A DNA stretch of 32,000 bases from Planctomycetales bacterium. GTDB taxonomy: Bacteria > 4484-113 > JAFGCY01. The notes under the pieces are model-generated. The model saw nothing but the letters and a program-made list of their open reading frames with translations. It had not been told where the DNA came from and did not search any database. The stretch covers positions 2,490,001 to 2,522,000 of the forward strand of contig CP060262.1 in assembly GCA_022646745.1 (NCBI GenBank), given 5' to 3'. Each line of letters starts with the position of its first letter. The first letter of the stretch is position 1. This document shows positions 4,527 to 32,000 of the stretch, one piece after another. The position numbers and the translations under genes are program-made.

Positions 4527-4590
4527 ATCCGCATGCCCCCGCCGGTCGAATAACTTGCAGGGGCTGACCGCCCCGTACATGGAGAAGGCA

Positions 4591-5508
4591 ATGAGTTTTC
4601 CGCAGTATCTGACACGTGGCTTCCTGCTGCTCACGGCGCTCATCGCGCTGGCCGTCCCGGCCCAGGCCGAGGAAGTCAGCGGCAGCGACACCGGCGATGC
4701 GATCAACCGCATCCAGCGCAAGATTGAGGAGATGGCCGGTGTGCTCGCCCTCAGCAAGACCCTTGATGAGGAGCAGACCCGCGCCCTGATTGACGACCTT
4801 GCCGAACTGCACAATGAGGTGAAGGCACTCAGGCAGGCCAATGACCTGATGATGGTCGCACTGCGTGAAGCCATCAAGCAGCGCGCTGCGGAACAGCAGG
4901 CCGAGGCCCAGCAGGCTCCGGTGCAGCAGGAACAGCCCCCGGTGCAACAGGAAGTGGTTCCGCAGCAGGAACCCGTGCAGCAGCAGCCGGTGCAGCAGGA
5001 AACTCCCCAGCAGCAGCCGGTGCAGCAGGAAACTCCCCAGCAGCAGCCGGTGCAGCAGGAAACTCCCCAGCAGCAGCCCGTGCAGCAGGAAACTCCCCAG
5101 CAGCAGCCCGTGCAGGCGGATCCACCTGCAACTGATCCGGAGGCAGGCACGACCCAGCCTCAGAAGGTATATGACCAGTGGCAGCCCTACCTGGACTTCA
5201 AGCTAGAATCCACCCCGCAGGATGCGACCTACAACGGCTGGGTGGCGGATTCCTCGATTGACCTGCTGTGGGGCGAGTACGGCCAGATGATCATCAAGGT
5301 CAACAACGGCTACACGGCCAGCTGGACCATCGAGAACTCATACACGGGCACTGCTGACCCCAATATAGATACAAAGGCTGGTGGTGAAATCATCGTGCAG
5401 ATCCGCGATGACGAGGGCCTGCGGGAGTACTCACTGCGCAACGGCGGCCTCGGCCCGATCTTCATGCGCTGGATCAGCGAGACGCCGGTTGCCGGCAACC
5501 CCGCCTGA
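4591..5508 (+). CDS. Secreted hypothetical protein with a Gln/Pro-rich decapeptide repeat; paralog of the 3761-4468 gene
   Basis: I prefer the ATG at 4591 because GGAGAAGG lies just upstream. The signal peptide is MSFPQYLTRGFLLLTALIALAVPAQA. A coiled-coil segment is followed by QQQPVQQETP repeated about 4.5 times, then a C-terminal domain related to the upstream gene. Confidence 0.8.
   Translation: MSFPQYLTRGFLLLTALIALAVPAQAEEVSGSDTGDAINRIQRKIEEMAGVLALSKTLDEEQTRALIDDLAELHNEVKALRQANDLMMVALREAIKQRAAEQQAEAQQAPVQQEQPPVQQEVVPQQEPVQQQPVQQETPQQQPVQQETPQQQPVQQETPQQQPVQQETPQQQPVQADPPATDPEAGTTQPQKVYDQWQPYLDFKLESTPQDATYNGWVADSSIDLLWGEYGQMIIKVNNGYTASWTIENSYTGTADPNIDTKAGGEIIVQIRDDEGLREYSLRNGGLGPIFMRWISETPVAGNPA
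4981..5115 (+). repeat. In-frame 30-bp tandem repeat, about 4.5 copies, inside a CDS
   Basis: The unit CAGCAGCCGGTGCAGCAGGAAACTCCCCAG starts at 4981, 5011, 5041 and 5071, with a half copy at 5101. The last copies differ by one base (CCG to CCC). More degenerate copies lie upstream from about 4909. Confidence 0.9.
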
Positions 5509-6669: not shown

Positions 6670-6750
6670 GGCGTGTCAATTCCCGCGTCATGGGTATAAA
6701 ATGATTGCGATGGGACGAAGCTAATGCCACAGTTTCACAGAGGTGTTGAT

Positions 6751-8868
6751 ATGCGAATCGGGAATTACAACCGCCTTCTGGCGGTTTTGGTGTTTGTCAT
6801 TCTGGCTATCGGAGTGGCAAGCTGCGGTGGTGGGAGTGACCCGACTACCACCAATCCGGGCGAGATCAACGTAGGCAACAACAACCCGCCTGCGCAGAAT
6901 TTCGATGGCCCGAACCAGTACGACGGCAAGCAGCAGCCGGGAACTGCGGATCCCTTCGATCCCTCCCAGCCGATCCAGCAGAGCCTTGGTTCAAACATCT
7001 TCGCCGTTCCGACCAACAGCACCAACAACGCTCAGCTGCTGGCAAAGAGCTTCTCACCGGGCCAGAAGGTGGCCTTCGTGGCTGTGAACACGAACCCGGC
7101 CTACCTGGACGCCCACTACAACCCGGGCACCCAGAGCAGCCCGAACCTGCCCCAGTCGGCCTACTCCGTCAATGCGGACCTGGTCAGCAAGGGCACTTCC
7201 AGTGTGAACTACACGCTTGCGGACCTGCAGGCCGAGACCCTGCAGTCCCTGGGCGATATCAACAGTTACGCCGGCATGGACTACAGCCATATCCAGATGA
7301 GCCCGACCGCCCTCTATGAGCGCGAGGCCTATGCGAATGGCAATGTCCCCTTCGCTGCGGACGACACCATCAAGAGCACCTCCGCCCTGCAGAAGGGTGA
7401 GGTCCGCTACTTCCTGGCTGCCGAGCCGACCATCCCGCCGCCGACGATCAACCCCGGCCCCGAGGATCCGGAGAAGGACGTCCAGGACCTGCAGTGGCCG
7501 CCCGAGTACCTGTACAGCCAGGCCGGCCGCCTCGTGTCGATCGGTTCGCACTGCTACATCTGGCTGACCACCGAGGTCAACAACGGTAAGCCGGACAACG
7601 TGCAGTACACCGAGGCCCGCCTGAACCGCATGGCCCGTGAGTTCGACACGGTGATCTTCCCGACCCTGACCGAGGCCTTCGGTGAGGTCCAGAACTACGA
7701 TGAGCTCAACGTCTGGAAGGACCTTGACAAGAACGCAGTGCTGACCGGTGACGACTTCGACACCAACGGCGAGCTGCTGACCGAGCTGCCGGGCGAGCCG
7801 GATACCAACCTCCGCTTCGACCAGCGCATCAACATCTTCATCCACAACTCCTTCAACCCCGGCGGTTTCTACACCTGGGGCATCAGCCAGGAGACTGCGG
7901 ATGCACTGCGTGAGCAGGGTCGTGATGACCTGATCGAGCAGCTGGCAAACGTCGGTTCCACGCTCTACATCACTTCCGACAACTTCCCGAACAATGACGA
8001 CTCCTGGGATGCCGCCTTCTCCGTGATGGCGCATGAGTTCCAGCACAAGCTTTACGCTGACAACGGCATGCCGACCCGCCAGCGTGACCCCGAAGCCAAC
8101 TTCAGCTGGCTCAACGAGGGTATGTCCCAGCTTTCGATCCACCTCTGCGGTTACACCGTGAACAGTGGCAAGATCGTCCCCTGGGCCATCACCAACCAGG
8201 TGGTGCCCTACCTGCAGGACATCCAGCACGTGCCCGTGCCGACCGACGGTAACCCGCAGGTTGACACCATCTCCCAGTACGGCGCGACCTTCATGTTCTT
8301 CCTGTACCTGTACGAGCACTACGAGCCCGGCATCGGCAAGCGTATCTACGCTGCCGGCAAGAAGGGTGAGGAAGACCCGATCGCCCTCGTTGAAGTCGGG
8401 GCCCTGCAGAAGGTCGTGACGGACCTCGGCCCGGATGACACCCTCGGCACCGCCGACGATGTGGTCCAGGAAGTGAACGACACCTTCGAGCAGCTGTTCA
8501 CCAAGTACAGCATCGCGAACTTCATCGACGGCATCTACACCCCGCAGACCGCCGACCTGTTCGACCCGCGCTTCCACTACAACACGATTGACCTCAAGGG
8601 TACGATCAACCTCGCCGGCGGCACCGTGGTGCTGCCCGGTGTGAAGACCGGCGTGTTCCCGAGCAACGGTACCTACCCGATCAACTCGATCCACCGTGAG
8701 GTTCGCCCTTGGTGCTCCGATTACATCGTGTTCGGTGGCGGTGACGGCCGCGACCTGCAGATGAACTTCTACACTGACCAGCACATGAAGTTCTTCATGC
8801 TGCCCGTGACCTTCGATCCGGCGCAGAACGCAGTGACCATCACTCCGAATGTGGTGATCAACAACTAG
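6751..8868 (+). CDS. Lipoprotein, gluzincin-type zinc metallopeptidase (HExxH ... WLNEG)
   Basis: I prefer the ATG at 6751 because GAGGTG lies upstream. Lipobox VASC (LAIGVASCGGG). The metal site is MAHEFQHKLY followed 22 residues later by SWLNEGMSQ, a Glu third ligand as in M1/thermolysin-like clans. The exact MEROPS family was not determined. Confidence 0.7.
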   Translation: MRIGNYNRLLAVLVFVILAIGVASCGGGSDPTTTNPGEINVGNNNPPAQNFDGPNQYDGKQQPGTADPFDPSQPIQQSLGSNIFAVPTNSTNNAQLLAKSFSPGQKVAFVAVNTNPAYLDAHYNPGTQSSPNLPQSAYSVNADLVSKGTSSVNYTLADLQAETLQSLGDINSYAGMDYSHIQMSPTALYEREAYANGNVPFAADDTIKSTSALQKGEVRYFLAAEPTIPPPTINPGPEDPEKDVQDLQWPPEYLYSQAGRLVSIGSHCYIWLTTEVNNGKPDNVQYTEARLNRMAREFDTVIFPTLTEAFGEVQNYDELNVWKDLDKNAVLTGDDFDTNGELLTELPGEPDTNLRFDQRINIFIHNSFNPGGFYTWGISQETADALREQGRDDLIEQLANVGSTLYITSDNFPNNDDSWDAAFSVMAHEFQHKLYADNGMPTRQRDPEANFSWLNEGMSQLSIHLCGYTVNSGKIVPWAITNQVVPYLQDIQHVPVPTDGNPQVDTISQYGATFMFFLYLYEHYEPGIGKRIYAAGKKGEEDPIALVEVGALQKVVTDLGPDDTLGTADDVVQEVNDTFEQLFTKYSIANFIDGIYTPQTADLFDPRFHYNTIDLKGTINLAGGTVVLPGVKTGVFPSNGTYPINSIHREVRPWCSDYIVFGGGDGRDLQMNFYTDQHMKFFMLPVTFDPAQNAVTITPNVVINN

Positions 8869-8997: not shown

Positions 8998-10824
8998 ATG
9001 TCCAGGCAGCTATCAGGCATCCTGCTCACCATGCTTCTGCTGCTGCTCAGCAGCACGGCCTTTGCGGCATTCCGCAACCAGGTCCTCGCCGTTGACCTGA
9101 AGCAGTTCGATGGCCGTGAGGTGCTGCTCGTACGCAGCTCACACGACATGAGCGTGCAGACGGGCTACAACCGCAACGCGGATGCCGGCACGATCAGCAT
9201 CCTGCTGCCAGCGGTGGACAGCGGCCAGTTCGCCAGCTACATCGGCGACCATTCGCTGGTCACCGGCTTTGTCCTGCAGGACGGCCCGGATGGCTGCGAG
9301 CTGCAGGTCGGCCTGGCCCGCCCGGAGCTGACCAGCCAGCAGTTCCTGCGCATCAGCCAGCCCAGCCGCAAGAGCCTGATGCTGGAAGTCTTCAACTCCG
9401 ATGAGGATCGCAGCAGGCTGTCCCCCGTGGTGAACCCGCTGGACAGCCTGCAGCCCGGTGAGCTGGCTGAATACGTCAAGCCTGAGAGACGCTCCACGCC
9501 TTCAGAGCCCCAGCTCCCGGCAGTTGAGGTTTCCAGCCTGAATATCGCGACATTTGACTTGAGCGGCATGGACAGCCAGCAGGTGCTGTCACATGCAGCC
9601 AGGAGCGGCCTGCTCAACCTGAAGGGCCGTGTGGTGGTGGAGACCGAGGACATCGGCTCCCTGACCGTCACGCCGGCCGGCCAGAGCCTGGCCAACTGGA
9701 TGCCGGCCCAGCCGCCGGGGGAGATCTACCTGTCCGGCAATAAGAAGGAAATCAACGAGTTCCTCAACGGCCTGGAGGATGGCAGCATCTACAGCCAGGC
9801 GCCGCTCGATGAGTATTGGACGGAGAACAAGCCGGGCCGGCGCAGCAGCAGCTACCGTGACGGCAGCTCCGTGGACAGCCGCCGGCGCCTGAAGGATGAC
9901 CCGCATTCAGGTCTCTACTACGACGGATTCAGCCCGCAGGACACCCAGCTCAGCGACATCCGCGTCACGCTGCAGGCCCCGGGCGGGATGAACCTCTATG
10001 ACGTGATCAACTACCTGTCCGAGATCAGCGGCATCAGCATCATGATTGACCCGTATGCCTTTGATGAGCCGACCGGCGGCGTGCGTGACCCGAAGGTCCC
10101 GGAACCGCCCTCCGGCGCGGACGGCACCCCCGGCTTCCGCGGGGCCGACCAGTTCATGCCGCAGAATGCGGCGCGCGGTGGCACCTTCGTTGGCAACCTG
10201 GTCAACGTGCCCTTCGATACCGCGCTCAAGCTGATCCTCGGCACGCATAACCTCGAGTTCGCGGTCTACGGCGGTGGTGGCCGGGCCGGTCAGTCCGGCA
10301 GCTCGATGTCCAGTGACGGCAAGGCCCGCGCCTATGGCGACAAGCCGGTGATCCTCGTGACCAGCCCCGAGCGCCTCAACCAGGAGCTGGCGGGCACCAA
10401 CGAGATCAACATGTTCCAGTTCCACTACGCTGATCCTGAGGTCGTGACCGACATGCTCGACAGCCTCGGCATGCTGCCCGGCACCGATTCCGGCTGGTTC
10501 ATCTACCGCGGAGGCGGTGGCGGTTCCTTTGGCAACGGCGGCGGCGGCGGCGGAGGCGGCTTCGGTGGAGGCGGTGGCAACGGGGGTGGCGGTGGCCGCG
10601 GCCGGGTCGGCAGCGGTGGCTTCGCTCAGCGCATGAGCGGCGACGATGAGCTTGGTGGAACCGCCAGCCTGCGACGCAGCCGGGGCATGCTCGTTTACCG
10701 GGGCAGCAGCCGCCAGCCTGTGCTGCAGGAAGTGAGCGAGGCCCTGGAACAGGGCCGTGAAGTGATCCGCCTGATCCTCTCCCCGGAGCAGGATGGCCAG
10801 CTCGTGACCCTGTTCGCCAACTGA
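8998..10824 (+). CDS. Secreted AMIN-like plus secretin N0/N1-like protein with a poly-Gly tract and no secretin pore domain
   Basis: AAGGAG Shine-Dalgarno. Signal peptide MSRQLSGILLTMLLLLLSSTAFA. The N-terminal beta domain is AMIN-like (VLAVDLKQFDGREVLLVRSS...LMLEVF). IRVTLQAPGGMNLYDVINYLSEISGISIMIDP and NVPFDTALKLILGTHNLEF follow the PilQ N0 pattern. NMFQFHYADPEVVTDMLDSL is N1-like. Then comes GGGGGSFGNGGGGGGGGFGGGGGNGGGGGRG and only about 70 more residues. Confidence 0.65.
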   Translation: MSRQLSGILLTMLLLLLSSTAFAAFRNQVLAVDLKQFDGREVLLVRSSHDMSVQTGYNRNADAGTISILLPAVDSGQFASYIGDHSLVTGFVLQDGPDGCELQVGLARPELTSQQFLRISQPSRKSLMLEVFNSDEDRSRLSPVVNPLDSLQPGELAEYVKPERRSTPSEPQLPAVEVSSLNIATFDLSGMDSQQVLSHAARSGLLNLKGRVVVETEDIGSLTVTPAGQSLANWMPAQPPGEIYLSGNKKEINEFLNGLEDGSIYSQAPLDEYWTENKPGRRSSSYRDGSSVDSRRRLKDDPHSGLYYDGFSPQDTQLSDIRVTLQAPGGMNLYDVINYLSEISGISIMIDPYAFDEPTGGVRDPKVPEPPSGADGTPGFRGADQFMPQNAARGGTFVGNLVNVPFDTALKLILGTHNLEFAVYGGGGRAGQSGSSMSSDGKARAYGDKPVILVTSPERLNQELAGTNEINMFQFHYADPEVVTDMLDSLGMLPGTDSGWFIYRGGGGGSFGNGGGGGGGGFGGGGGNGGGGGRGRVGSGGFAQRMSGDDELGGTASLRRSRGMLVYRGSSRQPVLQEVSEALEQGREVIRLILSPEQDGQLVTLFAN

Positions 10825-16623: not shown

Positions 16624-19600
16624 TCAGTCCCCGGAGCCAGCCTGCTCAAGCACCTGCTGCAGCACGTCGCCAAGTTCCTTCAGCTTGAGCGGTTTGTGCA
16701 GGTATTCCGTGATGCCGATGTCCCGTGCGCGTTCAGGGGCCAGGGTCTGGCTGTAGCCGGTGCACATCACGACCGGGATCCCGGGGCGCAGTTCCAGGAT
16801 GCGCCGTGACAGTTCCTCGCCTGTCATCTGCGGCATCGTCTGGTCGGTCAGCACCAGGTCGAATGCGTCCGGGTCCGCACTGAAGCAGCGCCAGGCCTGG
16901 GGCCCGCCCTGGCAACTGGTGACCTCGTAGCCCAGCACGGTGAGCATCTCACTGACGATCTCGATGATCATCGCCTCGTCGTCAACCAGCAGCACCCGGC
17001 CACGGCCGCTGCGCTGGGCCTTCTCCAGTGACTCGCCACTCTGGCTCTCAGTCTCACACAGCGGCAGGTAGACGCTGAAGCGCGTCCAGTGGGCCGGGCG
17101 GCTGCGCACCTCGATCACACCCTGCAGGCTGTGCACGATGCCATGCACGACTGACAGGCCCATTCCTGTGCCCATCCCGACCTCCTTCGTGGTGAAGAAG
17201 GGCTCGAAGATGCGCGAGATGTGCTCCTCGGCGATGCCGTCCCCGGTGTCCTCCACGTCGAGGCGCAGGTAGGGGCGCAGCTGAGTGCCGGAGTGCTGCA
17301 TCAGGAAGTCGTCATCCGGCAGGAATTCCGTGAGGCTGACCGTCAGCGTGCCGCCCTGTTCCATCATCGCATGCCCGGCGTTGGTGCACAGGTTCATCAG
17401 CAGCTGGTGGACCTCCGTGGCGTTGGCAAGCACGGTGCTGTTGGCCGCCTCCAGCCGCTGCACGATCTCAACGGTGGCCGGCAGCGATGCCCGCAGCAGC
17501 TTGAGCACCTCGCGCACCAGCAGGTCGACGCGCAGCGGGTTCTGGCTGCTCTCCTTCTTGCGGGCGTAGGACAGCACCTGGCGCACCAGCTCGGCGGCCC
17601 GGCTGCTGGCATCGATGATCGCCTGCAGGTAGTTGCCCGCGCTGCTGTGCTGCGGCAGGCAGTCCATCGCGATCTCTGCGTTGCCAACGATCGCGAACAG
17701 GATGTTGTTGAAGTCATGTGCGATGCCGCCCGCCAGCGTGCCGATCGCCTCCATTTTCTGGCTCTGCTTGAGCTGCTCCTCCATCGCAAGCTGGCGCGTC
17801 ACGTCACGCTTGACCGCCACGTAGCCGGCCAGTTCACCACGGCTGTCGCGCACGGGTGAGATGGTGGCCTCCTCCTGGTAGATCGAGCCGTCCTTGCGGC
17901 GGTTGATGAAGGTGCCGTGCCAGACCTCGCCGCGGCTGATCTGCTGCCACATCTCTCGGTGGAACTGCTCCTCCATCTCGCCGCTGGACAGCAGGCGCGG
18001 CGTGCTGCCGATCGCCTCCTGCCGGCTGTAGCCGGTGATCGCCTCGAAGGCCGGGTTTACATAGGTGATCACACCGCGGCTGTCGGTTGTCATGATCGCC
18101 TCATGCGCGCTCTCCACCGCGATCACCACCTGCCGCAGCTGGTTCTCCGCCGCATTCTGTTCCGTCACGTTCCGTACAATCGCCAGGCTGACACCGTGTC
18201 CCGAGGGGTCGATCGACATCTCGCAGTCCAGCAGCACGTCAATCAGCGTGCCGTCACTGCAGATGTAGGTGAACGGGATGTCGTGGATCCGGCCGACGCG
18301 CTGGAACTGCGGGTCCACCACCTCGCGCATGCTCTGTACCGACTCCGGCGTCATCAGGAAGTCCCCGCGGTGGCCGATCACCTCCTCGCGGCTGTAGCCG
18401 GTCTCGTCCAGCCACTTCTGGTTTACGTCGATGATGAAGCCCTCACTGTCAATCGAGTACATCATCACCGGCGCGTTGTGGTAGAAGTGGCGGAACTTCT
18501 CCTCGTTGGCACGCAGCAGCTCAAGAGTGCGTTCCTGCTCGGTGATGTCCTGCACGATGCCGCTTGAACCGAGGAAGCTGCCGTCGCTGGCTGTGTTCGG
18601 GTTCGAGCTGATGAGGCAGATGCGCTGCTCATCATCACTGCGCGTGATGCGCAGGCGGTAACTGCTGCCCATCCCGGCCTGGCGCAGGCGGTCCTGGCGG
18701 TTGACAACGGAGACCTGGTCATCGTCAAGGAATTCCGTGATTGCCCGTCCGTCCAGCCCGCCCCGCTCCACGCCCATGATGCGCTCAAGTGCGGGGTTGG
18801 CGAACCGGAAGCGGTTCTCACCATCGACCACGAAGATGCCCTCGCTGATGTCATTCACCAGCGTGCGGTACTTCTCCTCACTCTCCCGCAGCACCTCCTC
18901 GGTGCGCATCTGTTCCGTCACGTCACGCACAAGCGCCAGGCTGCCGATGTATTCACCATCCTGCGAGAAGCGCGGGCTGGCGGTCACCAGGGCGATGCGT
19001 ACCGGGCCAGAGAGGGGGCGGATGCGCATCGTGTAGCTGTTGCTCTGGCCCTGGCGGCGCAGTTCCTGCTGCCCGTTGATCCGCTGCCGTTCCTGCTCGT
19101 CCATGAACTCGTACATGCTGCGCCCGCTGGCGCTGCCCTCGGCCAGCCCGAGGATCCGCTCCAGTGCGGGATTGGCAAACTCGAACACACCGCTGGCATC
19201 CACAGTGGCAAGGCCTTCGGACATCTGCTCCACCAGCGTGCGGTAGCGCCGCTCGTTGTCGCGGATCGCCTCCTCAGCCTGGCGCATCTCGGTGACGTCC
19301 TGCACCAGTGCGTGGCTGCCGATGAAATCGCCGGTGCTGTTGTAGCGCGGGGACACCGACAGGTAGAGGTCGCGCACCTGGCCGTCAGCGCGCTGGATGC
19401 GCAGTTCGTAGCGGTTGGAGCTGCCCCCGCGCCGCAGGTCATGCTGGCGGTCCGCCACCTTGATCATTTCGCCACTGAGGAATTCACGGATGTTGCGGCC
19501 GACCAGGTGCTCCGGATGCAGGCCCATGATCCGCCCCAGGGCTGGGTTGGCATAGACGAAGTTGCCGTCCGGGTCCGCCATGCTCAGGCCCTCGAACATG

Positions 19601-21414
19601 GTGTCCACCAGGCCGCGGTACTGCCACTCGCTCTCGCGCAGGCGGTCGGAGGATATGCGGCGCTGGATTGCCAGCGCAATGTATCCGGAGAGGTAGCTCA
19701 CCAGCTCCACGTCCTGCTGGCTGTACACGGCATAGGTGCGGTAGTCCTGCAGCACGATCACACCGTTGACATTCTCGCCGTCTGACAACGGAACACCGAG
19801 CCAGGACATGCTGAGCGGCCCATGGGGCCTGATCAGGCCCTGCGTGCGCATCTTTTGCTGCTCATCGCGGTTGACAACCATTGGCCGGCCCTCGCGGCGC
19901 ACGATGTCCGTCAGGCTGCCATCCATCGGCTGCGGCTGGAAGTCCTCGTCCAGCTCATCAATGTGGAAGGGAAATTCGTACAGCTCGGTCTGCGGGTTGT
20001 ACAGCGAAACGTAGAAATTGCTGGCCGGTACGAGGCTGCCCAGCGCCCGGTGCACCGTTGCCAGCAGCTCCTCCAGGCTGGCTGTACGGCTTGTGGCCTC
20101 GGAAATCTCCAGCAGCAGGGCCTGGATGCGCTCCGCTCGTTCCCGCTCTGTCACATCCTGCGCCATGCCCACCAGCCGGCGGGGAACGCTTGCCGGGCCG
20201 GGCATCATCCGGCCACGCACGCGCAGGATGCGCTGGCGACCGGTACTCGTAAGTATCCGGATGTCGCAGGAGAGTTCCTTGCGGTCCTGCAGTGCGCTGC
20301 GGTACTGGCGCAGCAGCTGGCTGCGGTCCCGTGGCATCACATGACGCAACAGGCTGGAAATCGCCACCGGTTCACTGGGGGACAGGCCGAAGATGCGGCT
20401 GAGCTCATCAGTGAGGATGATCTGGTCCTGTCCGGCCTCGTATTCCCAGCTGCCCATGCCGGCCAGTTCCTCGCCGATCGCAAGCCGGGTCTCGCTTCGT
20501 TCGATGCTTGAGGCGGTGCGGCGCGCTTCGGTGATGTCGGTTGTCAGCAGTGCCAGGCCGATGATGTGCCCGCTGGCATCGCGGATCTCCAGCTGCCGGG
20601 CGCTCACCGAGACCAGCTCACCGGAGGCGGAGACAAACTCCAGCTCCTGTTCGGCGGAAGCCGGCAGGGCAGGCAGGCCGCCGCTTCGCCATGAGCGGGA
20701 ATCCTGCAGGATTCCGCCTGGCTGCAGGCTGCTGATGCTGCGCCCTTCGATGCCCATCAGGCTCAGGCCGAGCATCCCGCAGAATGCGGGATTGGCAGTG
20801 ATGATCGTCTGGCGGTCGCGGGTGTCCAACAGCACCATCCCCTCGCGGCTGTTGTCAAAGAAGCACTGCAATGTCGGTGAGAGTGCCGGGTCGCTGGAGG
20901 GCGGGGCAGTGTAGCCCGCTGGTTGGCTGAATGACAGCCTGACGGAACTGAGGGGCTGGTCATTGCCGGACTGGCTCTGCAGGCTGGCATGCAGCACCCG
21001 CGATCCACGCTGGCCGCGGTCCAGTTCACATTCGAACTGCATGCTGCTACCCGGCTGGCGCAGGAATTCCAGCAGGCGGGTCTCGATGTCCACACTGCAG
21101 CGCCCCAGCAGGCTGAGTACAGCCTGGTGCACACTCAGGCCGCTTTCTCCCGGGTCCGCCAGTGCCATGAACTCCGGGCTGGGGTCCACCCAGTGGATCA
21201 GTGCGTGGATGTCTTCCGGCAGGTTGATGAATGGTCCACTGAGGTCTGTGTTTCCGCTTTGTCCGGGGTTGAGGCTGGCCAGCTTTGCAGCCAGACGGCG
21301 CAGGTCGGCGCTGACACTTGCCCGGCCGGGCTGCTGCCGGGATTCTGCATGGAGCTGGACGGCTTCGCTTGCCCCATGCTTTTCCCTGTTTTCCGCTGGA
21401 AGCTTACCTTCCAT
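16624..21414 (-). CDS. Hybrid sensor histidine kinase with about 7 PAS modules, a GAF-like segment, HisKA, HATPase_c and a C-terminal receiver
   Basis: H-box GGIAHDFNNILFAIVGNAEIA, G2 box GTGMGLSVVHGIV and receiver RVLLVDDEAMI...DLVLTDQTMPQMTG. PAS cores recur as NPA[FL]xxI[LMT]G. A GAF-like block runs LEELLATVHRALGSLVP...NGVIVLQDY. Confidence 0.95.
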   Translation of the reverse strand: MEGKLPAENREKHGASEAVQLHAESRQQPGRASVSADLRRLAAKLASLNPGQSGNTDLSGPFINLPEDIHALIHWVDPSPEFMALADPGESGLSVHQAVLSLLGRCSVDIETRLLEFLRQPGSSMQFECELDRGQRGSRVLHASLQSQSGNDQPLSSVRLSFSQPAGYTAPPSSDPALSPTLQCFFDNSREGMVLLDTRDRQTIITANPAFCGMLGLSLMGIEGRSISSLQPGGILQDSRSWRSGGLPALPASAEQELEFVSASGELVSVSARQLEIRDASGHIIGLALLTTDITEARRTASSIERSETRLAIGEELAGMGSWEYEAGQDQIILTDELSRIFGLSPSEPVAISSLLRHVMPRDRSQLLRQYRSALQDRKELSCDIRILTSTGRQRILRVRGRMMPGPASVPRRLVGMAQDVTERERAERIQALLLEISEATSRTASLEELLATVHRALGSLVPASNFYVSLYNPQTELYEFPFHIDELDEDFQPQPMDGSLTDIVRREGRPMVVNRDEQQKMRTQGLIRPHGPLSMSWLGVPLSDGENVNGVIVLQDYRTYAVYSQQDVELVSYLSGYIALAIQRRISSDRLRESEWQYRGLVDTMFEGLSMADPDGNFVYANPALGRIMGLHPEHLVGRNIREFLSGEMIKVADRQHDLRRGGSSNRYELRIQRADGQVRDLYLSVSPRYNSTGDFIGSHALVQDVTEMRQAEEAIRDNERRYRTLVEQMSEGLATVDASGVFEFANPALERILGLAEGSASGRSMYEFMDEQERQRINGQQELRRQGQSNSYTMRIRPLSGPVRIALVTASPRFSQDGEYIGSLALVRDVTEQMRTEEVLRESEEKYRTLVNDISEGIFVVDGENRFRFANPALERIMGVERGGLDGRAITEFLDDDQVSVVNRQDRLRQAGMGSSYRLRITRSDDEQRICLISSNPNTASDGSFLGSSGIVQDITEQERTLELLRANEEKFRHFYHNAPVMMYSIDSEGFIIDVNQKWLDETGYSREEVIGHRGDFLMTPESVQSMREVVDPQFQRVGRIHDIPFTYICSDGTLIDVLLDCEMSIDPSGHGVSLAIVRNVTEQNAAENQLRQVVIAVESAHEAIMTTDSRGVITYVNPAFEAITGYSRQEAIGSTPRLLSSGEMEEQFHREMWQQISRGEVWHGTFINRRKDGSIYQEEATISPVRDSRGELAGYVAVKRDVTRQLAMEEQLKQSQKMEAIGTLAGGIAHDFNNILFAIVGNAEIAMDCLPQHSSAGNYLQAIIDASSRAAELVRQVLSYARKKESSQNPLRVDLLVREVLKLLRASLPATVEIVQRLEAANSTVLANATEVHQLLMNLCTNAGHAMMEQGGTLTVSLTEFLPDDDFLMQHSGTQLRPYLRLDVEDTGDGIAEEHISRIFEPFFTTKEVGMGTGMGLSVVHGIVHSLQGVIEVRSRPAHWTRFSVYLPLCETESQSGESLEKAQRSGRGRVLLVDDEAMIIEIVSEMLTVLGYEVTSCQGGPQAWRCFSADPDAFDLVLTDQTMPQMTGEELSRRILELRPGIPVVMCTGYSQTLAPERARDIGITEYLHKPLKLKELGDVLQQVLEQAGSGD

Positions 21415-25727: not shown

Positions 25728-28040
25728 TCAGAAGCCGCCGTTGAGGTAGTCCACCGGGTTGAAGCAGGAGGTCGGCTTGTTGTGGATGAACAGCACCTTC
25801 TCGGTGATGCCGATGCGATTCTTCACGATGTCCAGCACGGCGAACTCGCTGTTCATCTCGCGGAACTCATCGCTTTGCATGTGCTTCTGCTCGATCTCGG
25901 CCAGCTTCTGCTGGATCTTCGTGACCTTGCCCTCGAGCGGTGTTCCGGAGTAGCTCTCGCGGTAGTACTCCTTCAGCTCATCGAGGTTCGTGCGCAGGCG
26001 CGAGATCATGAACACCGTGTCGGCGAACTGCGTGCTGTGCAGCAGCTCGAGCACGGCCGGGTTGTTCTCCAGGAACTGGTGGGTGCTGTTGCCACGGTTG
26101 AAGTACTCAAAGGTGGCGAGGATGGTGACGTCCAGCTCGCGGGCCATCGCCTTTAAGTGGCTCGTGAGGATGTCAACGTCTATCTCGCGGCCGCCCGTTC
26201 CGTCTCCGTTGAGGCTGGCCTTGCCGCTGCGGGCTCGCAGCATGGCGACCATCAGCTGCAGGGAGTCGATCACCAGAAGCACGCTGGAGTGGTTCGCACC
26301 CTGCTCCTCGAGTTCGAGCTTCTTGTCCAGCACCAGCTGGCGGATCCCCTCCAGGCTGCCGGCTGCGCTGCCTTCGAGGATCGTGATGTTGTCACTGAAG
26401 GTCTGGTACTTCTCGAAGGCCGAGAACATCCTGCGGTTGAATTCCTTGTCCTCGTACAGCTCGGAGGGCTTGCGGCGCTTGTCGTCAATCATCGGGCTGG
26501 GGATCTTGCCGATGTAGGACAGGCTGCGCTTGAAGACCTCCTCCACACCACGCTGCAGGCCGACGAACAGGCACTGCGCGTCACTGTTCATCGCCGCCTC
26601 ATTCATCATCTGCAAGACGAAGGTCGATGTACCGGTGCCGGGGATGCCGGCCACGACGTACAGGTTGCCGGGATACAGGCCACCGGAGAGCGTACGGTTC
26701 AGGTGCTCGCTCTGGGTCGGCAGCACCTGGCGGCGGTCGTCGAACAGGCGGCGCAGTAGCGTCGGGCCGAGCTGCTTCAGGGAGGTGATCCCGCCGGCGG
26801 ACTCAGCCTGGCTGTAGAAGATGTTGGCGATCACGTCCCGCTCGTCAGACTTGGAGTCACGCTCCAGGCTGGCGCGGAAGGACTTGAAGAAGTCACTGGC
26901 CTTGCTGATCGTCTCCGGCCAGCGGCTGCGTGAGGGCAGGTCCGGGCGCCTGAGCGAGAACTCGTGCAGGCGCTGGTAGCTCATCTTCTTGAAGGCCGTG
27001 TAGCTCATGCGGATCTTGTAGATCTCGCGGCCGTCGATTGTCAGGATCGTGCCCGGGATGTTCGTGATCAGGTCCGGGCGGTAGGCTGACAGGTCAATCT
27101 GGCTGAAGGCCGCACTGCGCTCCGGGTTGTCAGGGTCGACACCGATCGTGGCGCAGGTCATGCGGCGGAAGATCTCATGCAGGTTGCGGCTCGGGGTGAT
27201 GCCGAACACGGTGTAGTCCACGTGCACGCTGATGTGCTGGCTGGTGTAATACACCGTCACCGCGTCATAGGGGACGTCGTAGTTCTGCTTGAAGCGCTCG
27301 ACGAGGTCGATCGCCTGGTTGATGGCGTGCACGATCTCGGCGGAGCTGCCGGCCTTGAACACCACGTAGTAGTCGCCCAGCAGCATCACGCGGCTGCTGC
27401 CGATCTGCTTCTGCAGTTCCTCGTGGTTGCCGGTGTTGTACAGGAAGTGCGAGCAGTACACATTGCTTCGGTACTGGCTCATGAATTCCTCGAGCTGGTC
27501 CAGGCGGATCATCAGCCCGCGGCCGAAGCCGCGCTGGCCGGCGTAGTTGATCTGCACCGGGCGCAGCTTGCCGTCGTCACTTTCAGAAGGGGCGAAGTGC
27601 CCGACCTCGACGAAGCGGAACTCACCGAGGTCCTCGCTGGCAATGGCGGACTGGCCAGTGCTTTCAGACACCGATTCACCTGAGTCGGCGGCTCCGCCAC
27701 CGATTTCCTCGAGCTCGACATTGAGCGTGCGGGCGAGGTCGGCGGCCGCCTGGTTGTACTCCTTGCCGAGGATCAGCGCGAACATGGTCAGCAGGTCCTC
27801 CCCGCCGTAGTTCATGTTGCTGGCCTCGCAGTACAGGTTGCGGCAGTAGGCTGTGCGGGAGTCCTGCTCGATCACGAGCGTCATCTTGGAGCGGTCGTTG
27901 CAGACGGGGCAATAAGCCTGGATCTCGTTGTCAGTGGCGTGGTAGTCACCCTTGCTGACACCCAGCTCCTGCAGGAAGGTGGACGCATCGAGCCGGGCCC
28001 GCAGCTTGTCCAGCGATTCCTTCGTGTACTTCTGATTCAT
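25728..28040 (-). CDS. Three-domain protein: CHC2-like primase zinc finger, AEP (PriS)-like domain and DnaB-like SF4 helicase C-terminal domain, with substituted catalytic motifs
   Basis: 770-aa ORF with native GC3-rich codon usage. The zinc finger is AYCPVCNDRSKMTLVIEQDSRTAYCRNLYC...GGEDLLTMFALILGKEYNQAAADLA. The middle segment has LLGDYYVVF, VYYTSQHISVHVD and IDLSAYRPDLITNIPGT in the order of AEP motifs I-III. The C-terminus has GGLYPGNLYVVAGIPGTGTSTF, LLVIDSLQLM, HLKAMARELDVTILATFEYFNR, FADTVFMISR and LDIVKNRIGITEKVLFIHNKPTSCF, colinear with DnaB motifs H1-H4. Confidence 0.85.
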   Translation of the reverse strand: MNQKYTKESLDKLRARLDASTFLQELGVSKGDYHATDNEIQAYCPVCNDRSKMTLVIEQDSRTAYCRNLYCEASNMNYGGEDLLTMFALILGKEYNQAAADLARTLNVELEEIGGGAADSGESVSESTGQSAIASEDLGEFRFVEVGHFAPSESDDGKLRPVQINYAGQRGFGRGLMIRLDQLEEFMSQYRSNVYCSHFLYNTGNHEELQKQIGSSRVMLLGDYYVVFKAGSSAEIVHAINQAIDLVERFKQNYDVPYDAVTVYYTSQHISVHVDYTVFGITPSRNLHEIFRRMTCATIGVDPDNPERSAAFSQIDLSAYRPDLITNIPGTILTIDGREIYKIRMSYTAFKKMSYQRLHEFSLRRPDLPSRSRWPETISKASDFFKSFRASLERDSKSDERDVIANIFYSQAESAGGITSLKQLGPTLLRRLFDDRRQVLPTQSEHLNRTLSGGLYPGNLYVVAGIPGTGTSTFVLQMMNEAAMNSDAQCLFVGLQRGVEEVFKRSLSYIGKIPSPMIDDKRRKPSELYEDKEFNRRMFSAFEKYQTFSDNITILEGSAAGSLEGIRQLVLDKKLELEEQGANHSSVLLVIDSLQLMVAMLRARSGKASLNGDGTGGREIDVDILTSHLKAMARELDVTILATFEYFNRGNSTHQFLENNPAVLELLHSTQFADTVFMISRLRTNLDELKEYYRESYSGTPLEGKVTKIQQKLAEIEQKHMQSDEFREMNSEFAVLDIVKNRIGITEKVLFIHNKPTSCFNPVDYLNGGF

Positions 28041-29649: not shown

Positions 29650-29679
29650 GCAGGGCCCCGGCCATGCTAGGATACGCAG

Positions 29680-30087
29680 ATGCAGGTCGCACACGCTGAA
29701 ATCATTTCGGCCATCAACCAGGCGCTGGCCAGCCGTGGACTGAGCGGCAGGGTGGCGCTGCTCGAAATCGAGCCGCCGCGTGACTGGGGCGTGAGCAGCA
29801 ATGTCTGCTTCATGCTTGGGCGCGAGGCCGCCGCGGATGAGATATCCAGGCAGACCGAGGGGCTCGGCAAGAAGGAAGCCAAGCAGCTCAGCGGCCAGCT
29901 TGCCAACGAGGCAGGCGTGCGGCTGGCGAGTGAACTGGCCGGCGAGCTGCAACGGGCCGCGCTGCCATACATTGGCAGGGTGGAGGCCGAGGGTGCCTAC
30001 CTGAACTTCTACTACGATGCGCAAAGACTCAGTGCGCATGTGCTGAGCAGCGTGCTGGCACAGGGCGCGCAGTTCGGCGGCGAGTAG
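29680..30087 (+). CDS. argS: Arginyl-tRNA synthetase N-terminal (Add-1, tRNA-binding) domain as a stand-alone 135-aa ORF
   Basis: IEPPRDWGVSSNVCFMLGRE and RVEAEGAYLNFYYDAQRLSAHVLSSVLAQGAQFGGE align with E. coli ArgRS QFGDYQANGMMAVAKK and [27 protein letters not shown]...LG. The ORF stops at TAG 30085-30087, exactly where the catalytic core should begin. Confidence 0.6.
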   Translation: MQVAHAEIISAINQALASRGLSGRVALLEIEPPRDWGVSSNVCFMLGREAAADEISRQTEGLGKKEAKQLSGQLANEAGVRLASELAGELQRAALPYIGRVEAEGAYLNFYYDAQRLSAHVLSSVLAQGAQFGGE

Positions 30088-30147
30088 GCAGAAGAAGTTG
30101 GCAGTTGGCAGAAGCAGAAGCAGAAGCAGAATGAGAATCAGGAACAG
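30087..30147 (+). repeat. Purine-rich hexamer microsatellite (GCAGAA-like units) at the left end of the argS insert
   Basis: GGCAGAAGAAGTTGGCAGTTGGCAGAAGCAGAAGCAGAAGCAGAATGAGAATCAGGAACAG. Confidence 0.8.
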
Positions 30148-30335
30148 TGGGCAGGGGAGCGCGTAGCGCAGGCGAAGCCCAAGCTGCGCAGACCATTGCA
30201 GACTTCATCACAGGTCAAACCTGCAAAGTTTGTTGGATCTGGAATTCTGCTTGATTAACCTCCTTTCATTTGGAATCTCTTGATTGCCAACTACGTGATC
30301 GGTCAAGGAAAGCGTAGCTTCCTCACGCCTCCGTT

Positions 30336-30432
30336 GTGCGACTTGCGCCGCACTTCCATTGCCTGGCTTGCGCCAGACCGTCGCGCCGAGCTTGCGCTCG
30401 ACCTCCGCGCCTGGCTTGCGCCAGACCTCCGT
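30336..30432. repeat. Four tandem 24-bp units, each a 5-bp stem with a TTGC-centred loop
   Basis: u0 30336-30359 GTGCGACTTGCGCCGCACTTCCAT. u1 30361-30384 GCCTGGCTTGCGCCAGACCGTCGC. u2 30385-30408 GCCGAGCTTGCGCTCGACCTCCGC. u3 30409-30432 GCCTGGCTTGCGCCAGACCTCCGT. The stems are CTGGC/GCCAG in u1 and u3 and CGAGC/GCTCG in u2. Confidence 0.85.
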
Positions 30433-30768
30433 GCAGTAGAACTGCCGGCAGTTTCCGCATTGCTGCGAATATGTCCTCCGTACACAGGTATTCGCGGGAG
30501 CACCTTCAAGCTCCGCTGGGCCAGTGACCGCCTCCGGAGAGCACACTACCTTGGTTGGTTGCCAGACTTTCGCCAGGCCTCTGAAGCCTGAATGACATCA
30601 GGCCTCCGATGCCGGACTCATATCCAGCCTCCGTGGGACACCGTCCCCGCGTCCGGGATGGCAGTGGGAAAGGGAGCCATCCGTGTCGTACATGTACTTT
30701 CGCTAGCTGTTCCTATTTTCCTTAACAATCGTAAAGTGTCAAGGAATATGAATGTTAAAGTACAAAAA

Positions 30769-30801
30769 GAGCAATGAAGATTGAGCAATGAGCAATGAGC
30801 C
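30769..30801 (+). repeat. Heptamer microsatellite (GAGCAAT-like, 4 units) near the right end of the argS insert
   Basis: GAGCAAT GAAGATT GAGCAAT GAGCAAT GAGCC. AGCAATGAG (30791-30799) can pair with CTCATTGCT (30857-30865). Confidence 0.8.
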
Positions 30802-30900
30802 AGACAGGCACCGAGGTGACATCTGTGCTGGCAGTCTCTTTGATCAGTCTTCAGCACTCATTGCTTCTTCAGCAGGCACTAAAATAGGCAGTCCCTAGCT

Positions 30901-32000
30901 ATGACTGAGTCACTGCACAACAAGCGCCGCATCATGGTTGAGTACGCGCAGCCCAATACCCACAAGGATTTCCACGTGGGACACCTGCGCAACGCGAGCA
31001 TAGGCCAGGCGATCGCCAACCTGCTGGAATTCCAGGGGCACGGCGTGTACAAGGCGACCTACATCGGCGATGTCGGGGCACATGTGGCCAAGGCGATGTG
31101 GGGCGAAATTCACCTCAGCGATCAGCAGTACGCCGATCAGTTCGCCGAGGCGATTGCGGTGAAGGACAGCCCTGACAGGCTGCTGTTCTGGGGCAGCTGC
31201 TACCGTGCAGGCAACCTGTTGTCGGATGATCCTGAGGTCAAGCAGCAGCAGCGCGCCTGGCTGAAGGCCTGGGAGGACAACCCGGATGGCGAGGAGCGCA
31301 GGAGCTGGATGCAGTCGCGCAACGAGTGTGATGAGGCCTTCCGGGCGATCTTCGATGAACTGCTGCTGCAGTTCACCGCGGAGCCGGACCTGTGGTTCTA
31401 CGAGTCCACGGTTGACGACACCAAGCTCGGGCAGAAGACCGCCCAGGAGCTGCTGGAGCGCGGCATCGCTGAAATTGACGACAGCGAGGAATACAAGGGC
31501 TCGATGTTCGTCGACTTCGAGAAGCAGGCTGATGCACTGAAGCCTGACGGCACACCGGTGTTCCGTGACGACGAGAAGAAGAAGATCCGCAAGCTGGGCA
31601 AGATGGTGATCCTGCGCAGCGATGGTACCAGCCTGTACCAGACGAAGGAGCTGGGGCTGGCCAAGCACAAGTTCGACCTGATCCGCGAGACCACCGGCAG
31701 CGAGTTGCAGGAGAGCCTGTACGTCGTCGGCGCTGAGCAGAAGCTGTACTTCCAGCAGGTGCTGGCGATCCTCAGGCTGTGGGGCTTCCCGAACGCGGAG
31801 AACTGCCGCCATATTGACTACGAGCTGGTCGTGCTGCCCGAAGGCAAGATGAGCAGCCGTGCCGGAAGCATCGTGTCCTACCGCGACCTGCGGGATGAGG
31901 CACTGCGCCGCGCGGAGGAGACCGTGCGCGAGAAGGGCATCATCACGGATGAGGCGCAGATCAGGGAGACGGCGCAGGCGATTGCCATCGCAGCGATCAA
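30901..32000 (+). CDS. argS: Arginyl-tRNA synthetase catalytic core (class I), separate ORF; 3' end runs off the window
   Basis: Absent from the ORF track because it has no stop in the window. Hand translation gives MTESLHNKRRIMVEYAQPNTHKDFHVGHLRNASIGQAIANLLEFQGHGVYKATYIGDVG... with the HIGH-type motif HVGH. Later come ILRSDGTSLYQTKELGLAKHK and GKMSSRAGSIVSYRDL, the ArgRS counterpart of KMSKS. It is colinear with E. coli ArgRS from about residue 118 onward. The 300-aa minus-strand ORF 30910-31812 in the track is its antisense shadow. Confidence 0.92.
   Translation, partial: MTESLHNKRRIMVEYAQPNTHKDFHVGHLRNASIGQAIANLLEFQGHGVYKATYIGDVGAHVAKAMWGEIHLSDQQYADQFAEAIAVKDSPDRLLFWGSCYRAGNLLSDDPEVKQQQRAWLKAWEDNPDGEERRSWMQSRNECDEAFRAIFDELLLQFTAEPDLWFYESTVDDTKLGQKTAQELLERGIAEIDDSEEYKGSMFVDFEKQADALKPDGTPVFRDDEKKKIRKLGKMVILRSDGTSLYQTKELGLAKHKFDLIRETTGSELQESLYVVGAEQKLYFQQVLAILRLWGFPNAENCRHIDYELVVLPEGKMSSRAGSIVSYRDLRDEALRRAEETVREKGIITDEAQIRETAQAIAIAAI

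Follow-up and report, generated by a model that had tools for sequence, protein, structure and literature searches.

A conserved fission of argS at the Add-1/core boundary in a clade of uncultured bacteria

Introduction

Arginyl-tRNA synthetase (ArgRS) is encoded by two adjacent genes in a stretch of DNA from a Planctomycetales bacterium (GTDB lineage Bacteria; 4484-113; JAFGCY01), taken from GenBank assembly GCA_022646745.1, contig CP060262.1, positions 2,490,001 to 2,522,000 of the forward strand. Within these 32,000 nucleotides (nt), hereafter the window, argS consists of two plus-strand open reading frames (ORFs), one of 135 amino acids (aa) at 29680-30087 and one that begins at 30901 and runs beyond the window end, with 813 nt between them. 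Alignments with relatives and estimates of selection identify this as a real, conserved and selected gene fission that separates the Add-1 domain from the catalytic core. The most likely explanation, which we regard as probable, is that the gene broke in the ancestor of a clade and that two separately expressed polypeptides now rebuild the enzyme together.

The break in argS

An earlier note, made from the letters of the stretch alone, had reported that argS is broken at the Add-1/core junction, that 813 bp separate the ORFs and that essentially no residues are missing at the break. Each of these statements is borne out, the distance by the sequence itself and the other two by domain matches and by comparison with relatives in which the gene is fused. 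The argS model TIGR00456 is matched weakly by the N ORF over positions 55-105 (E 5.6e-4) and strongly by the C ORF from position 109 onwards (E 4e-44); as the first match ends at 105 and the second begins at 109, the break is placed between them. The N ORF ends in ...AQGAQFGGE, followed by TAG, and the core ORF begins with ATG at 30901, reading MTESLHNKRRIMVEYAQPNTHKDFHVGH. In fused relatives the junction reads ...FGRGNPTGKRIMVEY; aligned to it, the window reads ...FGGE and a stop, followed by MTESLHNKRRIMVEY, so that 0 residues have been lost.

The two ORFs share one reading frame (30901-29680 = 1221 = 3 x 407), with eight in-frame stops between them. Beyond its TAG the N frame stays open for 56 codons, up to TAA at 30256-30258, as had been noted correctly. 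The accompanying statement that this frame never rejoins the core frame is wrong as worded, the frame being the same with eight stops in between, and its substance holds, as readthrough is unable to fuse the halves.

The second gene, argS-C (30901 to 32000 and past the window end, plus strand), encodes the Rossmann-fold catalytic core and the start of the anticodon-binding region. Its full product has 511 aa, as seen in P0006, which is 100% identical over the window part. Pfam family tRNA-synt_1d (PF00750) matches residues 5-366 of the C ORF from profile position 16 (E 2.5e-37), the HIGH-type motif HVGH lies at core residues 25-28, and P0006 carries a precomputed match to the DALR anticodon-binding domain (PF05746) that lies beyond the window.

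Conservation of the split among relatives

Contigs of relatives were fetched and one genome per species was scanned, drawing on ENA, Logan runs, JGI and metagenome-assembled genomes (MAGs) from NCBI. Seven distinct lineages, counting the window, have an N ORF directly upstream of a core ORF with an identical break point. The intervening spacer measures 13 nt in L004-L006 (three different sequencing runs with an identical junction), 60 nt in L009, 174 nt in L001/L002 (identical ENA and Logan assemblies), 233 nt in L012 (MAG 'UBP7 HKST-UBA03'), about 566 nt in L013 (MAG AC1.30), 805 nt in L011 (MAG 'UBP7 HKST-UBA01', with a core 97% identical to that of the window) and 813 nt in the window, the longest of the seven lengths in the clade. 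The largest expansion, to about 810 nt, is thus found in the window genome and L011. The relatives' spacers are mostly non-homologous, except for the last ~30 nt and a short hairpin segment common to the four closest genomes. The window, L001 and L009 have the two ORFs in frame with each other, and in L004-L006 the frames differ.

Protein collections support the same picture. A search recovered stand-alone N fragments of 135-139 aa with 71-87% identity to the window N protein and stand-alone cores of 493-511 aa with 73-90% identity to the window core, and the window N protein itself is on record on 19 contigs. The closest public genomes of the clade are MAGs labelled UBP7. A scan of the JGI metagenomes with the N-fragment alignment found no further split loci, so the clade is absent from that collection.

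A single continuous argS is present in the next relatives out (L014, L015, L017, L018 and L010; 56-65% core identity). A neighbour-joining tree of the core region places all split loci in a single clade, nested among the fused genes, and L010, the sole fused locus checked for gene order, shares two downstream genes with the split loci. Given the fused genes outside the split clade and the shared downstream genes of L010, the fused state is ancestral. The simplest history consistent with these comparisons is one fission in the ancestor of the clade, after which the newly intergenic DNA was free to grow. The earlier note had regarded the 813 bp as an insert splitting argS; they are instead lineage-specific growth of the spacer in a gene that was already split.

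Fused relatives also have insertions of up to ~50 aa exactly at the Add-1/core junction. For example, L014 and L015 carry a Cys-containing insertion of ~20 aa (ICSGMQPGDECYRGYDCMP), L018 and P0127 have a Gly-rich stretch of ~50 aa, and L017 and P0129 have Pro/Asp-rich repeats. Judging by these alignments, the junction is a hypervariable, permissive linker in this ArgRS subfamily, which would explain how a fission at this point survived.

The free-standing Add-1 domain

Homology, retained tRNA-contact residues and selection together indicate that argS-N (29680-30087, plus strand) is a bona fide Add-1 domain, the N-terminal domain that binds the tRNA D-loop, and that it is under selection and no decaying remnant. 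Its public annotation is 'hypothetical protein'. In tblastn searches, the N ORF matches the fused relatives L010, L014, L015, L017 and L018 with 48-56% identity (E 1e-35 to 6e-40), and the matching regions adjoin the cores of these genes, directly upstream. Pfam returned no match for the window N protein, including to PF03485 (Arg_tRNA_synt_N), for which only a faint precomputed match exists on the orthologue P0003.

An AlphaFold model of the N protein has a mean pLDDT (predicted local distance difference test) score of 86. When this model was compared with the PDB using Foldseek, the top three structures were all ArgRS (2zue_A, 1iq0 and 5b63_A, from P. horikoshii, T. thermophilus and E. coli), matched at their N-terminal regions, but with query template modelling scores (TMq) of only 0.42-0.51 and a best E of 8e-3. 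The model also has a long extra helix at residues 64-93, a helical insertion to which Arg_tRNA_synt_N of Pfam is blind.

Across five N-fragment clusters, 80 of the 135 positions are invariant, including the block VEAEGAYLNFYYD. HMMER aligned this block to residues 103-115 of yeast ArgRS, placing Y107 and N109, both invariant in all five clusters, opposite yeast F109 and Q111. In a manual alignment the same two residues stand opposite F82 and N84 of E. coli ArgRS, which stack on and hydrogen-bond with A20 of the tRNA-Arg D-loop (PMC8975779). No tRNA-Arg gene from which nucleotide 20 could be read was found in the window or in 13 related loci.

Pairwise Nei-Gojobori estimates of the ratio of non-synonymous to synonymous substitution rates (dN/dS) are 0.18-0.28 for the N gene and 0.12-0.23 for the core, at dS of 0.55-1.3, indicating that both halves are under purifying selection. 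The N ORF is free of stops and frameshifts in six of the seven split lineages; the exceptions to a maintained N gene are L013, where it is frameshifted, and L007/L152, which lack it at the locus. Relative to the core, the N part diverges faster by a factor of 1.5-2.3 in split pairs and of 1.2-2.0 in fused pairs, and the similarity of these ratios suggests no marked relaxation after the fission.

An exhaustive profile search for other stand-alone Add-1 proteins gave 52 matches. The short ones that were inspected end at contig ends or derive from frameshifted genes and were rejected. Two further short Add-1 candidates, P0137 and P0143, are without contig placement.

Expression signals

Each half is preceded by a hexamer resembling a -10 element. 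For the N gene this is TAGGAT at 29668-29673 (plus strand), read from the sequence 6 nt before the ATG, and TAGGAT or TAGAAT is found at equal distance in L011, L012, L001, L003 and L004. This position suggests a leaderless or near-leaderless N mRNA.

For the core gene, TAAAAT lies at 30880-30885 (plus strand), exactly 15 nt upstream of the ATG at 30901, and no Shine-Dalgarno sequence precedes that ATG; both points had been made in the earlier note and are confirmed. A hexamer stands at this 15-nt distance in all seven split lineages, as TAAAAT in the window, L011, L012, L013, L009 and L001 and as TAGAAT, overlapping the stop codon of the N gene, in L004. Its distance from the core is constant although the remaining spacer differs among the lineages. 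The TAA within TAAAAT is the last in-frame stop before the core, and beyond it no start is possible ahead of the ATG at 30901. TAAAAT is also present at a distance of 11 nt in the core-only locus L152. Taken together, its sequence and placement make TAAAAT the likely -10 element of a separate core-gene promoter. No convincing -35 element was found for this putative promoter, and a promoter scanner made no call at the TAAAAT site. Other genes in the window have either a GGAGG-type Shine-Dalgarno sequence or a close TAnnnT, and mRNAs with a leader thus seem to coexist in the window genome with mRNAs that have a short leader or none.

Origin and function of the split enzyme

In the history that we consider probable, the fission took place in the common ancestor of the uncultured clade, within the length-variable Add-1/core linker. 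The 135-aa argS-N would be expressed directly after its -10-like hexamer and the 511-aa argS-C from its own TAAAAT promoter, without a Shine-Dalgarno sequence, so that both proteins are made. The free Add-1 domain would then dock non-covalently on the core or on the core-tRNA complex and contribute the position-20 pocket for the tRNA-Arg D-loop, so that two chains make up a normal ArgRS. The intervening DNA, once it had become ordinary intergenic sequence, would have been free to grow, reaching ~810 nt in the window genome and L011. The earlier note had offered three mechanisms, namely two associating polypeptides, a functional core alone and removal of the insert at the RNA level. The first is the best supported, because the break is kept in seven lineages, both halves are selected and the tRNA-binding residues are retained. 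The note's suggestion that the arrangement must be tolerated agrees with a break that is real and conserved.

Several observations nevertheless weigh against a two-chain enzyme. The N model resembles solved ArgRS structures only modestly (TM ~0.5, Foldseek E 8e-3), partly because of the extra helix at 64-93, and association in trans is presumed by analogy with other split synthetases. Relatives also suggest that the core may cope without the N piece in some lineages. L007, L008 and L152 form a sister branch of the split clade with 73% core identity. The L007/L152 locus (L152:9084-11482, on a 59.6-kb contig of ENA ERZ28493029) has the core, TAAAAT and the same downstream genes, with an NTP-transferase gene 179 nt upstream of the core, and in L152 the core ATG, 11 nt after TAAAAT, yields a longer basic N-terminal tail (MASSRQGTETAVSADQRVARAPRRRIMVEF). 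No N-like sequence was found there within 10 kb upstream or 4.5 kb downstream of the core. Searches of protein sets revealed no relocated N gene for this lineage, although they were insensitive: the word-indexed search returned stand-alone N fragments only and missed the N domains of fused relatives, which tblastn finds at ~50% identity. Either this lineage has its N gene at another place in the genome or it has lost the gene. In L013 (3025-3440; MAG AC1.30, JAWLAZ010000002.1), the frame of the N ORF is shifted by several small indels within ~60 nt and its hexamer has changed from TAGGAT to CAGGAG (positions 1 and 6), beside an intact core that is 94% identical; this may reflect an Add-1 gene in the early stages of being lost, or an error of assembly.

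Such loci are what would be expected if the core alone were a working ArgRS and the free Add-1 domain were dispensable, either having another role (tRNA binding, chaperoning or regulation) or slowly being lost. The 16 kb without an N fragment at the L007/L152 locus, the damaged N gene and mutated hexamer of L013 and the presence of only five stand-alone N clusters in a set of 5.8 billion proteins, none assignable to the L007 lineage, all point this way, as does the finding that the kinetics of yeast ArgRS are unchanged when its D-loop contact residues are mutated (PMC8975779). We consider this explanation possible but unlikely, since dN/dS of 0.18-0.28 at near-saturated dS implies that the N protein is kept functional in most lineages, the residues that recognise position 20 are invariant and N adjoins the core in seven lineages; the indels in L013 may be assembly errors, and the L007 lineage may carry its N gene elsewhere. 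That the locus is a decaying pseudogene, with an intact argS paralogue doing the work, is far less probable. Frameshifted argS loci do exist in metagenome data, such as L091, where argS falls into three ORFs and the first of the breaks is close to the junction seen here. However, the garbled sequence that follows single-base shifts in L091 is a mark of decay or error, and the window is clean by comparison. Purifying selection acts on both halves, with dN/dS near 0.2 contradicting the decay that the earlier note had named as a refutation; stops and frameshifts are absent from six of the seven lineages, which share an identical break point at dS of 0.55-1.3, and the genome scan found one argS locus of this subfamily per UBP7-related MAG, with patterns that would miss other ArgRS types.

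A single fused protein could also arise if the 813 nt were removed from the RNA, as a group I or II intron or by other splicing, or were bypassed by recoding. In its favour, the ORFs share a frame in three lineages (the window, L001 and L009), and structure is predicted for 30290-30710, though on the minus strand, which is the wrong one for an argS intron. Against this, Rfam yielded no intron or other family match on either strand at E up to 10, the plus strand of the same segment folds like shuffled sequence (z = 0.0), and relatives have spacers of 13-813 nt that mostly lack homology to one another. Readthrough would meet the eight in-frame stops of the window and, at the 13-nt spacer of L004-L006, ORFs in different frames. 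Furthermore, the halves carry their own stop or start, and the core has a conserved ATG with its upstream hexamer. We therefore reject removal at the RNA level as exceedingly improbable. Scarcely conceivable is an artefact of assembly or sequencing, the other scenario that the earlier note had named as a refutation. All sequences are metagenome-assembled, but the same architecture recurs in more than ten independent assemblies from different projects and assemblers, and the junction is identical across three runs (L004, L005 and L006) and between ENA and Logan (L001 and L002), which excludes a continuous argS hidden by misassembly.

Beyond the two-chain enzyme itself, a more speculative picture can be drawn, although as a whole it is decidedly doubtful, more so than a self-sufficient core. 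Add-1 would here be a trans-acting tRNA-Arg-binding subunit with its own promoter, its ratio to the core tuning charging efficiency or the choice of isoacceptor; L007, and perhaps L013, would now be free of Add-1, and the window spacer might hold a new structured minus-strand RNA built of GGAGG motifs and hairpins.

Contents of the spacer

The intergenic spacer between argS-N and argS-C (30088-30900) contains several features of its own. Its identity to the L011 spacer is 92.4%, compared with 81-85% for the argS ORFs on either side at their third codon positions. A cluster of eight CCTCC motifs (GGAGG on the minus strand) occupies 30259-30632 and alternates with short hairpins. Seven of the eight are CCTCCG, a motif with 17 occurrences in the 32-kb window. 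Within this segment, three tandem 24-nt hairpin units (GCCTGGC-TTGC-GCCAGAC with CTCCGC linkers) span 30361-30434, their loops reading GCAA on the minus strand. Among 90 loci, CCTCCG-hairpin units occur, besides the window, only in the argS spacers of L011, L012 and L013. Most relatives lack this content, and the split therefore does not require it.

The minus strand of 30290-30710 is predicted to fold more stably than shuffled sequence (z = -3.0), whereas the plus strand is not. A candidate sigma-70-like promoter, TTGACA-16-GAAAAT with 10 of 12 matches, lies on the minus strand at 30715-30742 and is directed into the spacer; in the alignment, its L011 counterpart reads TTGACA-16-GACAAT. These features hint at a structured minus-strand RNA or a local family of hairpin repeats, for which there are only two homologous copies. 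Rfam gave no relevant match on either strand, whether for the whole window at the gathering score or for 29900-31100 at E up to 10, and its CsrB and RsmX/Y/Z families did not match the spacer. A sponge small RNA of the Csr/Rsm type was considered for the minus strand and rejected, as the predicted unpaired probability of its eight GGAGG motifs is 0.04-0.46 against an RNA average of 0.38 and thus not above it.

Two other identities for the spacer were also rejected. Although the longest spacer frames of the window and L011 are open on both strands, they show many non-conservative differences; with starts that are not conserved and no domain matches, the spacer ORFs were treated as non-coding. 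As for a copy of a repeat or mobile element, no second copy of the spacer is present in the 32-kb window, and the matches returned by scans of viral contigs (3) and metagenomes (57 single matches) were reduced by blastn to the seed only, as expected by chance.

The spacers of L012 (3768-4000) and L013 (3435-4000) contain a ~190-nt palindromic element that is absent from the window and lies beside CCTCCG-hairpin units. It is made of nested inverted repeats (CACGAAG/CTTCGTG and CACAAAG/CTTTGTG), carries the marker TTTGTGATCCGGAAAA and is present in one copy in L012 and two tandem copies in L013. It looks like a small mobile or repeat element that targets the argS spacer.

Other features of the window and related loci

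Downstream of argS-C in L001, L004, L009, L007 and L010 is a 566-568-aa gene resembling ACS_CODH_B_C, which overlaps the argS stop by 4 nt. It is followed by a ~143-aa gene in every lineage examined, split or fused, and with argS-C these genes look like a conserved operon. The fragmented locus L091 (4001-6124; JGI 3300076002) is a distant argS in three ORFs of 141, 212 and 289 aa created by single-base frameshifts, and is likely a sequencing error or a pseudogene.

Elsewhere in the window, a DnaB-like helicase of 770 aa (25728-28040, minus strand) is much longer than the usual DnaB, with DnaB_C confined to residues 440-760, and its long N-terminal part may be an additional domain or result from a mis-called start; proteins of 766-768 aa occupy the same position in L001 and L003. 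A hybrid sensor kinase of 1596 aa (16624-21414, minus strand) comprises GAF, at least six PAS, HisKA, HATPase_c and receiver domains, and its internal PAS repeats are visible as direct DNA repeats of ~370 nt. The ORF at 4555-5508 encodes a 317-aa protein without a Pfam match, in which tandem repeats of 15 and 30 nt at 4860-5125 (plus strand; GTGCAGCAGGAAACTCCCCAGCAGCAGCCG) give rise to a Gln/Pro-rich repeat (~VQQETPQQQP). Two further plus-strand ORFs, of 714 aa (6724-8868) and 608 aa (8998-10824), have a high GC content at third codon positions and no Pfam match at E up to 1e-5.

Significance and comparison with known systems

Natural fissions of aminoacyl-tRNA synthetases are rare, and each is a ready experiment on which domains need covalent linkage. 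The clade described here offers a graded series, from fused genes through split genes with both halves and split genes with a damaged N half to the core only. This series makes it testable how far ArgRS needs the domain that recognises the D-loop (A20), and whether that domain works in trans. The split also cleanly marks a clade within an uncultured lineage, and it is a trap for annotation, in that completeness and pathway tools would see a truncated argS and an orphan ORF. The general understanding of synthetases is unchanged, and the importance of the finding is moderate.

Synthetases made from two genes are already known, and it is the split of ArgRS that is apparently undescribed: a literature search returned no account of ArgRS in two pieces or of Add-1 as a protein of its own. 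The leucyl-tRNA synthetase (LeuRS) of Aquifex aeolicus, a class Ia enzyme, is encoded by two genes whose polypeptides must assemble to work. Its break lies inside the catalytic/CP1 region, its genes are far apart and the association of its chains has been demonstrated. Like this alpha/beta LeuRS, the ArgRS described here is a class I synthetase that naturally occurs in two polypeptides. In contrast, argS is broken cleanly between two domains, its halves are neighbours and the shorter one encodes an entire accessory domain for tRNA binding, with an association of the chains that is here presumed. The heterodimeric A. aeolicus enzyme has been studied (PMC2377443).

In archaea, pheT (encoding the beta subunit of phenylalanyl-tRNA synthetase, PheRS) is split in Altiarchaeales and other genes, such as that of alanyl-tRNA synthetase (AlaRS), are split in Nanoarchaeota; these are lineage-wide fissions at a poorly conserved linker, seen in several MAGs and serving as a clade marker (PMC4975002). 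The argS split resembles them as a lineage-wide fission of a translation enzyme at a linker. It differs in that those cases are archaeal and involve other enzymes and domains, and in that the Altiarchaeales halves lie on different contigs, whereas the argS halves are adjacent with a spacer of variable length.

Relatives of accessory synthetase domains, for tRNA binding or editing, are also known as separate proteins that act in trans on tRNA, among them Trbp111/Arc1p-type proteins, AlaX, YbaK and the ThrRS-ed of the crenarchaeal pair ThrRS-cat/ThrRS-ed. The product of argS-N is similarly a free-standing accessory domain, which would act in trans in the same way. Finally, compared with the single-chain ArgRS of E. 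coli, T. thermophilus, P. horikoshii and yeast, the split enzyme keeps the order of Add-1, Rossmann core with HxGH and DALR, as well as the pair of an aromatic residue and Asn for nucleotide 20. Unlike in those enzymes, Add-1 is here a separate gene product, with a long helical insertion (helix 64-93 of the model).

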